Origin: a virus
Taxonomy: Duplodnaviria > Heunggongvirae > Uroviricota > Caudoviricetes
DNA length: 42,771 nucleotides
Strand: one strand, 5' to 3'
Virus record (IMG/VR): IMGVR_UViG_2563366830_000018
The notes beneath the pieces were generated by a model that was given only the letters and a program-made list of their open reading frames with translations, was not told the origin of the DNA and did not search any database. The position numbers were made by a program, and so were the translations under genes. Of the stretch, positions 367 to 3,044 are shown piece after piece (the first letter of the stretch is position 1; the number at the start of each line of letters is the position of its first letter).

Positions 367-654
367 TTAACGGATCAACATCCAGATCAGCAGACACGCC
401 ACCACCGGCACAGCAAAATCCATCAGGCTTGCCACATCCCACACGCGTGGATCAAAACCGCCCCACCACGGCATATTCATACGCTTGCCATGCCCGAACA
501 TTTCAATCCAGCGATATTCTGCCTGGGTATGTTCACGCGCAATGAAGAACGTACAACCAGCTATCGCCCCGTAAGCCCAGTTTCCGGTAAAAAGACCAAC
601 CAGTACCTGCGCAGCCACAGCACAAAGTGCATGAAGGAAAGGTGTTATATCCAT
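367..654 (-). CDS. Small hydrophobic (membrane) protein, unknown function
   Basis: Track ORF 367..657 begins with GTG; in-frame ATG at 654 is preceded by AAGGAG. Product has hydrophobic segments (AVAAQVLVGLF, AVPVVACLLIWMLI). Confidence 0.55.
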   Translation of the reverse strand: MDITPFLHALCAVAAQVLVGLFTGNWAYGAIAGCTFFIAREHTQAEYRWIEMFGHGKRMNMPWWGGFDPRVWDVASLMDFAVPVVACLLIWMLIR

Positions 655-663
655 CACTTCTCC

Positions 664-945
664 TTACATCCAACCGCGAAGTTGATGCTCAACAACAACC
701 GCATATTTATCGAATATTGACGGTGTTTTCACATCACTAATGATACGCACGTTTACAAAATAGCCGTCTTCCTTCACACATACCGGTTCGCCATCTTCAT
801 TCAGTTCTTCGGTTTCTTTGTACACGTTACCTATCACGTCAATAAGAATATCATCCTGCATCGACTCGTCGTCATAATAGCCAGTGCTCTCCATAAAGGC
901 CGAAAAGTCGGCTCTGTCGGCAAATTTGAGGGTTAAGTCTCGCAT
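664..945 (-). CDS. Small acidic protein coupled to tail fiber gene (possible tail fiber chaperone/accessory)
   Basis: 93-aa ORF whose ATG shares a base with the tail fiber stop (TAATG overlap); function is inferred from position only. Confidence 0.5.
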   Translation of the reverse strand: MRDLTLKFADRADFSAFMESTGYYDDESMQDDILIDVIGNVYKETEELNEDGEPVCVKEDGYFVNVRIISDVKTPSIFDKYAVVVEHQLRGWM

Positions 946-3044
946 TATATTTTTTCTCCCTGCTGCGCTGCTGTTAATTCCCTGTGCCAGATACGCAAAT
1001 TTCGGACGTGCCCGAACAGATGGCGGCTGCCACTGGACGCCTTTCCACCGATAGTGATGAATCCACCAGTGTACTTCTGATTTTGATATGCTGAAGTTGT
1101 CAATGCCCCGAAAACACCATTGACAACAACTTGCAACCTTCTGTCTTCCGAAAATAAAAAACCAACGATATTATGGCGCTTAGTTCTTGCAAGAGTACTA
1201 TTATACTCTTTAATGGCATTTGAGTCGCCGTTTGTGATTATCGCTTTATTACCACGAGTAGCAAAACCAAGGTACATATAACTTTGATTTATTATATCTG
1301 TGGAATCTCCCGTTGTTGTTATATCCAGAATCCTTGCTCCACCAGTAATATTAGGCATAAAGCCAGGTTCCCATAGTGTATTTACTTCAACAAGACAACT
1401 TATTGCAGGAGTTGACCAGTTTAATTTTACAGGGACAGTAACCATATCACTGGCTCTTGTTGCACCAGTTCCCGACGTAATGATAAATGATGACGCATGA
1501 GTTCCCTTTTCAAACTGAGGAGTGGTCATCATTATCTGGTCTCCGGCCTGTATGGAACGCCCTTCCGCAGCCATCTCAAAACGAGCGTGAATACTTTTCG
1601 GTTCTGGTGATTTATATGTAAATTCGATGCGTAACCATCCGTTAGCTTCTCTGTATATGACATGATTGACAGCATCCTCACCATTCGGAATTTTTAATAT
1701 TTCTCCGGTGCCGCAATCTATATATGACTCAGCAACCAGTGTGTTGCTTGTTCCGTCATCGTTCACATAAGCTACGCGAGGTCTGATTAATATATCAGTC
1801 CCTTTAACACGGCACGAAAGTGTAACTGATTCATTTGCATCAACACTGATTACACGGGGATAACCACTCGTAATTAATGTCGCCCGGCCATCCAACGGAG
1901 TTCCCGTAACCGTGAATGTTCCATATGTAAACCCATACTCGTCAGTTTCACTAGTCACCGATAATGCAGATTTCAGATAATTCCATAAGGATGGTGTATT
2001 ACTATAATAAAGTGTGTTTGTTCTCTGCCCCTCTATTAACAACCCCATTTTTTCAAATCTGGGTTCATCTACAGACGCAATACAAAGCCCCCCGGATTTA
2101 TCAATATATGTCGCTTCAGATGCCCGCTTAAACTTAACAATCTTGTCGCCCGGTATTGTTATTTCATCATCACCAATAACAATCTTTTTATATGATGGCG
2201 AAAAGCCCGTAATCATATCCAGTGAATCGTTAAACGGTATCCACACATCAGGCAGCGGTTGTAAGACATATTTATACGGCTCTGCTGCCTGGCTTGCATA
2301 CTCTCTGGCTGCATCTTCACTTGCTTTAGCTGCCGTCTGGCTTGCTGCCGATGCTTTCGCTGAGTTAGCCGCCGCACTCTCGCTTTCAGCTGCTGCATCC
2401 TGACTGCTTTTCGCCGCAGTTTCACTGGCTTTGGCATTCGTTTCGCTGGTTTTCGCTGCCGTCTGGCTGGACTTCGCGTTGGTTTCGCTCGTCTTTGCGG
2501 CTGTCTCACTGTTTTTCGCGTTGGTTTCTGATTTTTTGGCTGCAGTCGCGGAGTTTGCCGATGCAGTCTGTGAGGCCGCTGCCGCCTGTGCGCTGTTAGC
2601 TGCGTTCGTTTCTGAGGTTTTCGCCGCGTTCTTCGATGATGCCGCTGCTGTTTCTGATTTCTTTGCTGCCGCTGCACTCTGTGATGACGCTCCGGCATGA
2701 CGTGCCACTTCATTCACCATCAGCTCAAAACGGCGCAGTGCCTCCGGACGGGCATCATCCTCCGTCATGGCACCGAGAAAATCATTCAGCGTACCTGGTC
2801 TGGAACCTTCATAGACGGTAATGGTCCCGGCATGTGAAGGTGGAAAACCTTCAACCAGCAGGGTGACGCTGTACTGGCCATACTCAACATCCATGCTGTA
2901 ACGCCCGGCTTCATCCGGATTTTCAGAGGCCACCGTGTTCACCACCACCGTGCTGCTGGTCCGTCTGGCCTTCAGCACAATGGTGCAGTTCTGTACTGGT
3001 TTTCCTGTGCCATCTTTAAGCACGCCAGAAATTTTTACTGTCAT
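945..3044 (-). CDS. Side tail fiber protein with Ala/Ser/Thr-rich repeats and LamG/ConA-like C-terminal domain
   Basis: N-terminus resembles conserved lambdoid tail fiber N-domains; central SETAAK/TSETNAK repeats; C-terminal motif HLFGHVRNLRIWHRELT typical of LamG-like lectin folds. Confidence 0.8.
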   Translation of the reverse strand: MTVKISGVLKDGTGKPVQNCTIVLKARRTSSTVVVNTVASENPDEAGRYSMDVEYGQYSVTLLVEGFPPSHAGTITVYEGSRPGTLNDFLGAMTEDDARPEALRRFELMVNEVARHAGASSQSAAAAKKSETAAASSKNAAKTSETNAANSAQAAAASQTASANSATAAKKSETNAKNSETAAKTSETNAKSSQTAAKTSETNAKASETAAKSSQDAAAESESAAANSAKASAASQTAAKASEDAAREYASQAAEPYKYVLQPLPDVWIPFNDSLDMITGFSPSYKKIVIGDDEITIPGDKIVKFKRASEATYIDKSGGLCIASVDEPRFEKMGLLIEGQRTNTLYYSNTPSLWNYLKSALSVTSETDEYGFTYGTFTVTGTPLDGRATLITSGYPRVISVDANESVTLSCRVKGTDILIRPRVAYVNDDGTSNTLVAESYIDCGTGEILKIPNGEDAVNHVIYREANGWLRIEFTYKSPEPKSIHARFEMAAEGRSIQAGDQIMMTTPQFEKGTHASSFIITSGTGATRASDMVTVPVKLNWSTPAISCLVEVNTLWEPGFMPNITGGARILDITTTGDSTDIINQSYMYLGFATRGNKAIITNGDSNAIKEYNSTLARTKRHNIVGFLFSEDRRLQVVVNGVFGALTTSAYQNQKYTGGFITIGGKASSGSRHLFGHVRNLRIWHRELTAAQQGEKI
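2340..2700. repeat. Imperfect tandem nucleotide repeats inside tail fiber gene
   Basis: Repeated ttcgctggttttcgctgc-type units encoding the Ala/Ser/Thr-rich repeats of the fiber shaft. Confidence 0.7.

Follow-up and report, generated by a model that had tools for sequence, protein, structure and literature searches.

The window analysed here, which is the whole 42,771-nucleotide (nt) stretch of IMG/VR virus record IMGVR_UViG_2563366830_000018 (Caudoviricetes), is an Escherichia coli lambda-like prophage in which integrase, immunity, replication, Q, phage-21-type lysis cassette, head and tail genes are all present. At the late (tail) operon's distal end in this intact-looking prophage, on the minus strand, a side tail fibre gene (945–3044) is followed by genes for a 93-amino-acid (aa) acidic protein, p93 (664–945), and a 96-aa membrane protein, p96 (367–657). 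The reading favoured here, to which we give a probability of about 0.5, is that the fibre is of the lambda Stf type, that p93 would be its assembly or accessory factor, that a second fibre gene has been lost from between the two small genes, and that p96 would act on the host envelope. Gene structure, domain content, family membership and genomic associations were observed, as was the deletion. What the window carries is an ordinary and very common prophage module in a rare form that lacks one gene; what stands out is that both small-gene families are coherent, widespread and uncharacterised, with unusually strict genomic associations.

The fibre gene and the open reading frames (ORFs) for the two small proteins, which the original prediction had identified from the sequence, were recovered on the minus strand at the same positions, and the 699-aa fibre was found to have the anatomy proposed for it, with an N-terminal attachment domain, an Ala/Ser/Thr-rich shaft and, marginally recognised, a LamG-like C-terminus. 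Residues 1–131 (2652–3044) match PF08400 (E 4.1e-68; profile of 134 positions) and residues 1–94 align with the lambda Stf chain of 9e7m/9mgh (E 3e-48), placing the N-terminus in the Stf group; this was the sole match in a sequence search of PDB chains with the fibre, p93 and p96. The protein also matches phrog_1419/3279 (“tail (fiber) protein”), and a 98%-identical copy is labelled “prophage tail fiber N-terminal domain-containing protein” in RefSeq. The shaft (aa 113–255; 2280–2708) is 65% Ala, Ser and Thr, compared with 24% in the remaining protein, and has SETNA and AAK motifs every 14 aa (42 nt), with a 42-nt tandem repeat at 2410–2528. The C-terminal module (aa 256–699; 948–2279) begins with a conserved entry segment (PYKYVLQPLPDVWIPF..), continues into a variable beta-sandwich body and closes with a conserved stretch of ~30 aa (..RHLFGHVRNLRIWHRELTAAQQGEKI). 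Within it, aa 336–531 match NF048003, the “phage head spike fiber domain” (66 bits, cut-off 36), and aa 583–694 match Laminin_G_3 (PF13385) at 29.8 bits, marginally above the cut-off of 27.6; a Pfam search found no Peptidase_S74 domain (PF13884) on this fibre. Among the first 90 loci surveyed, the body (aa 336–670) is mostly 29–56% identical to that of the window, compared with mostly 66–82% for the last 29 aa, and the two are both 99–100% identical in three loci only (L001, L006 and L020). The extreme C-terminus of the fibre is a conserved junction, and the variable part upstream of it is presumably the receptor-binding one. In such a fibre the Stf domain would plug into the tail tip, the shaft would presumably be trimeric, and the beta-sandwich body would probably bind a surface glycan.

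The association of p93 with this type of fibre begins at the nucleotide level. Its ATG shares the A of the fibre's TAA stop codon (..ATATAATGCG..), which is the TAATG overlap noted from the start, and p93 likewise starts at the fibre stop codon in lambdoid, T1-, HK578-, 9g-, T5-, rV5- and P1-like phages, virulent carriers being the T1-like tunus, Dhillonvirus KarlBarth, Seuratvirus VogelGryff, the T5-like SPLA5b and rV5-like phages. In the loci examined, all fibres that precede p93 have the end motif ..IRIGGQTxxGxRHLFGH(V/I)RN(F/L)RIWHxxLTDxQ in common, and their N-termini are unrelated (lambda Stf, T1-like, Dhillonvirus, Seuratvirus, T5-like and rV5-like). An ORF of 70–130 aa starts no more than 15 nt from the fibre stop in 181 of 183 motif-bearing fibres, and the two exceptions look like ORF-calling artefacts, the gene being annotated in one and a gap of exactly the size of p93 being present in the other. 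Most loci were gathered through similarity to p93 or p96, so that these counts carry an ascertainment bias; a partly independent check came from tblastn on 50,697 phage records, where the fibre's last 120 aa were found in 203 records and p93 in 182, with nearly equal counts per taxon (p93/fibre end: Escherichia 146/163, Salmonella 15/17, Campylobacter 8/8, Dhillonvirus 3/3). The subtypes of p93 track the last ~40 aa of the fibre (Spearman 0.51) over the variable body (0.25) or p96 (0.21), and in 25 of 25 cases one subtype was accompanied by the same fibre-end type, with no more than one residue of difference.

The pairing occurs twice in a Leclercia P1-like plasmid prophage (L149, 892–5288), where two tandem LamG-ended fibres (700 and 437 aa) lie downstream of gene R and each is followed by its own overlapping p93 homologue (94 and 95 aa; E ~1e-11), the second fibre beginning where the C-terminal module of the window fibre begins. 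We take these tandem pairs to sit where P1 has S and U. They are followed by p96, a 104-aa gene that we take, from its position and size, to be lydA, and lydB. In P1 an invertase gene adjoins the invertible fibre segment, whereas gene calling in the 10.3-kb stretch of L149 yielded none. That the fibre C-terminus and the small genes form an invertible Pin/Cin cassette was considered and dropped, since no invertase gene lies close to the module in the window and the two tandem copies in L149 have a direct orientation. Invertase genes lie near the module in HannyBb and in PhiR63_1, the latter having a Pin-type serine recombinase (L004, 1754–2344) just beyond p96 and in the opposite orientation. 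A viral contig with Comamonas-like lysis genes carries a Pfam-confirmed Tfa-type chaperone after one fibre and, after a LamG-ended fibre, a protein of 188 aa that can be aligned with p93 over its N-terminal half (hhalign E 1.7e-4, probability 49%).

In position p93 resembles Tfa, being a small gene directly 3′ of the fibre, co-translated with it and co-varying with its tip. Taken together, these associations indicate that p93 is most likely a cognate trans-acting accessory of the LamG-type fibre end, by preference an assembly factor. The fibre chaperone that the original prediction had suggested is thus the best-supported reading of the protein, now strengthened by the near-obligate coupling to the fibre end and by the U/Tfa position in the P1-like element, with comparative genomics as the whole of its basis, and p93 would be analogous in role to Tfa/U while standing outside that family. 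The protein would be made in step with the fibre through the stop/start overlap and would act on the conserved C-terminal end, as a counterpart of Tfa/U for a fibre that has neither a Tfa partner nor an intramolecular S74 chaperone.

The protein itself is strongly acidic (isoelectric point 4.19; 21 Asp and Glu compared with 9 Lys and Arg) and matches phrog_1361 (E 7.5e-44; 1–93 of 92 positions), a family annotated “unknown function”. The expected lack of a recognisable Tfa-type gene was borne out: p93 has no Pfam match at E ≤ 0.1 and none in NCBIfam or PADLOC, Caudo_TAP/Tfa included, and it matched neither PF02413 nor PF16778, whereas the genuine Tfa-type protein of locus L153 matched PF16778 at E 3e-15 in the same search. 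In PADLOC-DB v2 neither p93 nor p96 found a match at E ≤ 1. A word-indexed search gave a p93 family of 224 clusters, nearly all from Escherichia and all named “hypothetical”, and an exhaustive HMMER scan returned 45 representative clusters of ~90 aa; among 1.8 billion representative proteins there was no fusion of p93 to a fibre. A match to a 2,928-aa protein (P0275) was set aside as a short low-complexity similarity. When genomes were scanned at the species level with the p93 pattern, three loci only were found, two in Escherichia and one on a short contig of a metagenome-assembled genome labelled Collinsella, and no distant context was gained. AlphaFold 2 modelled p93 as a small alpha/beta sandwich at a predicted local distance difference test (pLDDT) score of 86.5, and its structural neighbours were weak or uncharacterised only. 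No description of p93 or p96 was found in the literature. The homology searches that the original prediction had proposed yielded a family for each small protein, phrog_1361 and phrog_1443, and a function for neither; these matches, together with hundreds to thousands of homologues, show that both are genuine genes and that neither is a chance ORF.

Relatives of the module, among them those of PhiR63_1, HannyBb and 2G7b, show the second fibre gene. Their p93 and p96 homologues are separated by a gene of 234 or 346 aa that encodes a short fibre, composed of an N-terminal peptide that is conserved, a middle part that is small and variable, and a self-cleaving chaperone domain of the Peptidase_S74 type. 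The peptide, M(A/V)TxT(V)IPxDITxLK, of which MATSTVIPDDIKTLK, MATVTVIPSDITKLK and MVTKTVIPTDITKLK are examples, is common to lambdoid, T1-like, Dhillonvirus, Seuratvirus and T5-like phages. Its conservation on an otherwise variable fibre suggests a docking module, whose conserved partner can only be the LamG end or p93. The second fibre is present in 75 of the 77 loci that have a window-type p93 and a placeable p96, with a spacing between p93 and p96 of 704, 725 or 1087–1097 nt, and p93 abuts p96 only in the window and in its 98%-identical twin from E. coli SW070919. When a probe for this junction was compared with 5,426 complete E. coli genomes, 1,688 matched part of it and 2 spanned it. Two loci whose fibre body is 99% identical to that of the window (L006 and L020) have kept the 234-aa gene. 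The junction lies at 658–666 on the minus strand (p93 TAA at 664–666) and contains AAGGAG; at this site L006 and L004 carry the 234- or 346-aa gene, and the ribosome-binding region ahead of the middle gene resembles that ahead of p96 (GGATGTGAGG.. and GGATAAAGGAGG..). From this comparison we conclude that the window is a rare deletion derivative, from which the second fibre gene has dropped out cleanly, between the two similar ribosome-binding regions. In the ancestral module a second short fibre, with its docking peptide, small variable tip and self-cleaving S74 chaperone, would have followed p93 and been attached to the first fibre, probably as a two-part or branched fibre. The module without a second fibre is also a stable architecture, since the p93b subtype (PhiR40_1 type, 41% identical) is directly followed by p96 in 47 of 47 loci. 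The lost S74-type fibre, the conserved fibre end with the variable part upstream of it, and the spread of both small-gene families far beyond the lambdoids had not been part of the original prediction.

The p96 gene has a GTG start at 657 and an ATG at 654, giving 96 or 95 aa, of which RefSeq takes the ATG in the SW070919 copy, and the AAGGAG Shine–Dalgarno sequence overlaps the p93 stop codon. AlphaFold 2 predicted with confidence (pLDDT 92.7) a three-helix membrane bundle (helices 5–24, 27–53 and 75–95), two of the helices being strongly and one moderately hydrophobic, and a fold search gave no informative neighbour. The protein matches phrog_1443 (E 2.7e-58; 2–96 of 97 positions; “unknown function”), and its family numbers 657 clusters when searched with a single sequence and 2,739 when searched with a profile (clustered at 90% identity), all unnamed and with no Pfam domain. 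Homologues at ~55–65% identity occur in Escherichia, Salmonella, Citrobacter, Enterobacter, Leclercia, Aeromonas, Comamonas and a Halomonas phage. Twenty columns are invariant in 66 sequences, mostly within AREHTQAEYRW..GKRxNMPWWGGFD; the invariant polar residues are D3, H9, Q17, R41, E42, Q45, E47, Y48, R49, W50, R59 and D80, and those outside the motif include H9 and Q17 in helix 1 and D80, with P84, in helix 3.

The company that p96 keeps is what gives a hint of its role. In many types of temperate phage its place is right after whichever gene closes the receptor-binding module: p93 or an S74 fibre in lambdoids, a tailspike in the P22-like Gally, p93 in the SSU5-like PhiR41_1, the fibre/p93 pairs of the P1-like element, a tail fibre in the P2-like prophages of Aeromonas, a pectate-lyase-like protein in an Enterobacter prophage, and either a DUF4376 protein or J plus a small ORF in a Comamonas prophage and the viral contigs related to it, where the lysis genes come next. 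In Halomonas phiHAP-1 it stands after Tfa and before the sheath gene FI, presumably at the P2-type cargo hotspot. The gene was absent from the virulent phage loci examined that have the fibre–p93–second fibre arrangement, and in Escherichia phage HC6, whose neighbouring genes (ssb, recombinase) look virulent, a decayed 51-aa remnant (L238, 2965–3120; ..RRRANIPWWGGFDWRAWDLPSLLD) lies directly after an S74 tailspike; this absence and decay suggest that p96 is useful mainly to temperate phages. The same partial match as in HC6 was seen in ZCEC08, PBM-3 and Salmonella phage ST1UNAM. In the Aeromonas rivipollensis chromosome a lone homologue (L010, 6001–6309) lies in a non-phage context between pirin and RIO1 kinase genes, ~1.2 kb from two lipid A acyltransferase genes. 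The 236-kb Aeromonas jumbo phage ACP1 has an intact 87-aa p96-like gene (L232, 2417–2680), with a large protein for which an intein-splicing domain is annotated on one side and a tailspike-like beta-helix protein on the other.

We therefore lean, tentatively and with low confidence, towards p96 as an envelope-acting factor with a conserved target, concerned with superinfection exclusion or with receptor masking or modification. As a small inner-membrane protein that travels as the last gene of receptor-binding modules and lies outside the virion, it would act on the host envelope and either exclude superinfecting phage or mask or modify a surface receptor. The moron or exclusion factor of the original prediction gains from the position of p96 as last gene in many temperate types and from its absence or decay in virulent coliphages with the same fibre modules; it loses from the want of a match to any exclusion or defence family, from the coupling to the late operon and from the intact copy in the jumbo Aeromonas phage.

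Several observations weigh against these assignments and give room to other explanations. Physical adjacency would by itself be enough to explain why p93 co-varies with the fibre end, and the window-type p93 almost always comes with a second fibre, so that an adaptor role fits too: p93 would then sit as a structural piece on the LamG end, docking the peptide of the second fibre in a branched or serial fibre, and would be a leftover in the window. The conserved peptide does suggest a docking partner, be it p93 or the LamG end; in the T5-like DT57C, branched lateral fibres made of two proteins are known from genetics, and lateral fibres of several proteins in small siphoviruses were remarked on by the BASEL authors. 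We nevertheless consider the adaptor unlikely. All 47 p93b loci and all p93c loci are without a second fibre, and the rV5-like locus and the P1-like tandem fibres have p93 without an adjoining S74 fibre, which leaves the LamG-ended fibre as the sole constant partner of p93; DT57C, moreover, forms its branches without any p93-like gene. Even less probable, in our estimate, is that p93 and p96 are merely linked to the fibre, hitch-hiking at a recombination hotspot 3′ of the hypervariable cassette with functions unrelated to it. The conserved fibre end, p93 and p96 do flank a hypervariable body as a recombination arm would, no biochemical similarity ties either small protein to fibres, and p96 occurs alone in the Aeromonas chromosome and also near toxin–antitoxin and insertion sequence genes. 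Linkage would have to account, however, for a p93 position and stop/start overlap kept in phage families with no other sequence in common, and twice in one P1-like element, for a persistence at 30–50% protein identity that is hard to explain without selection for co-function, and for a p96 that follows at least seven kinds of receptor-binding gene.

For p96 the proposed envelope role has to contend with its matching no PADLOC defence model, Pfam or NCBIfam family or solved fold, with the existence of stand-alone chromosomal copies, and with an identity of ~60% kept across hosts and very different receptor-binding proteins, because of which it cannot be receptor-specific. In many loci, furthermore, its start codon abuts or overlaps the late gene before it, and loci of the PhiR63_1 type have, between p96 and the second fibre, a terminator hairpin (L004, 2866–2907) that lies ~20 nt upstream of p96 and leaves no room for a promoter, both of which point to late, lytic expression rather than expression in the lysogen. 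A late membrane protein for lysis or release, whether holin- or antiholin-like or preventing entrapment in debris, would suit these features, as it would the position of p96 directly before lysis genes in the Comamonas prophage and related contigs, before the 104-aa gene and lydB in the P1-like element, and, as the only membrane protein, directly before a putative endolysin (assigned by sequence motif) in locus L154, together with the intact copy in the tail-fibre locus of ACP1. This explanation, the main rival of the envelope role, also appears improbable to us. Holins typically have a charged C-terminal tail, which p96 lacks, ending one residue after helix 3; its ~60% identity between Escherichia and Comamonas is far above usual holin conservation; no lysis gene lies near it in lambdoid, P22-like or Enterobacter prophages; and it is decayed in HC6. 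As the holin of the window prophage it was rejected, the complete phage-21-type cassette (pinholin, SAR endolysin, Rz/Rz1) being present elsewhere, at 23.3–25.0 kb, with its own S21-like pinholin.

A wider reading can be drawn from the same associations, which we regard as doubtful. Here p93 would be an unrecognised but widespread class of trans-acting partner of LamG-ended lateral fibres, a chaperone or a junction protein, within a universal plug-and-socket joint that p93 would form with the conserved end of the first fibre and the N-terminal peptide of the S74-type second one, and through which two-part fibres would be built and swapped in lambdoid, T1-, T5-, HK578-, 9g-, rV5- and P1-like phages. 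With it p96 would represent a new pan-phage inner-membrane family, aimed at a conserved step in how envelope glycans are displayed or how DNA enters and protecting the lysogen or the progeny whatever the receptor-binding protein. Side and lateral tail fibres decide which O-antigen-bearing strains a siphovirus adsorbs to, and for phage therapy and lambda-based delivery vectors they are being engineered. Should every fibre with this LamG-type end need p93 for its folding or completion, chimeric fibres made from such prophage domains would need the cognate p93 to be co-expressed, and p93, together with the conserved fibre end and the second fibre's N-terminal peptide, would define portable junctions for swapping tips; at present p93 is labelled “hypothetical” everywhere, the BASEL reference phages included. 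As p96 shadows receptor-binding genes, its target could reveal a general mechanism of exclusion or receptor masking. The associations of both proteins extend into well-studied model phage collections, which makes such questions cheap to test.

On the minus strand of the window, J (3862–7599), lom (3195–3794; PF06316, E 6e-125), a terminator (3062–3091), the fibre gene, p93, p96 and a hairpin follow one another, the fibre thus standing downstream of J and lom as Stf does. The terminator between lom and the fibre gene is a strong intrinsic one, with a 13-bp stem and a T-run, so that the fibre, p93 and p96 should need antiterminated late transcription. A promoter scan found 6 sites, compared with 5.9 in shuffled controls, and no moron promoter can be claimed from it; an Rfam search of 1–4000 gave no match. 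A dinI-like gene (1–249, plus strand) is convergent to the fibre–p93–p96 unit, and the long hairpin at 318–350, with a plus-strand T-run within 318–366, which was read directly from the sequence and which a simple terminator scan did not report, is probably the terminator of dinI and marks the end of the late tail-fibre transcription unit. Positions 1–3900 are 98% identical to a prophage adjoining yecD/aspS in E. coli SW070919, and a 241-nt piece across p93 and p96 is 100% identical in strain MS 196-1. DNA related to the module is found in hundreds of phage records and most E. coli genomes, p93- or p96-like DNA being present in ~31% of complete E. coli genomes.

The lysis cassette (23265–24995, minus strand) consists of an S21-like pinholin (24681–24995), a DUF1327 gene (24326–24676), a signal-arrest-release (SAR)-type endolysin (23729–24262) and Rz (23265–23747) with an embedded Rz1 (23327–23512). 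Upstream of it lie tRNA genes for Arg-tct, Arg-tcg and Met-cat (25337–25586, minus strand), placed as in Stx-type lambdoid phages, directly 3′ of the gene for a 237-aa AraC-family regulator (25615–26328; PF00165/PF12833). This gene belongs to a low-GC block (0.39–0.44; 25615–28000, minus strand) that also holds a 214-aa ORF with a weak WYL match (26939–27583) and that looks like acquired cargo in the late regulatory region.

Among known systems, Cor (phi80/N15/T1), Llp (T5), HK97 gp15, P22 SieA and P2 Z/fun are likewise small envelope proteins encoded at or in the receptor-binding cluster, mostly of temperate phages. Yet p96 has no sequence or profile similarity to such proteins in PADLOC or Pfam and, unlike Cor and Llp, no lipobox, the H-A-L before Cys12 not forming one and the Cys12 column being unconserved in 66 homologues; and, in contrast to receptor-specific blockers, it is highly conserved whatever receptor-binding protein accompanies it. 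The NF048003 match at aa 336–531 is shared with the head spike of the Rhodobacter capsulatus gene transfer agent, which binds capsule, and suggests a polysaccharide-binding beta-sandwich in the fibre, here on a tail side fibre and not on a head spike. The T5-like DT57C offers a close parallel for two consecutive fibre genes, the second of which ends in Peptidase_S74 and is thought to attach through the first; its branched lateral fibres LtfA and LtfB both carry S74 and have no small gene between them (PMC4728585, PMC10713586), whereas the window-type first fibre is LamG-ended and followed by p93, and the window lacks the second fibre. Other T5-like phages, SPLA5b for one, have the fibre–p93–second fibre arrangement. 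From the lambda Stf–Tfa system (S–U in Mu and P1) the module differs in a fibre C-terminal half unrelated to that of lambda Stf and in a p93 that is half the size of Tfa, lacks the Caudo_TAP/Tfa and Phage_tail_APC signatures and belongs to another predicted fold class (alpha/beta sandwich). It shares with that system the Stf attachment domain (PF08400; 9e7m), the place after J and lom, and a small gene that directly follows the fibre and is coupled to it.

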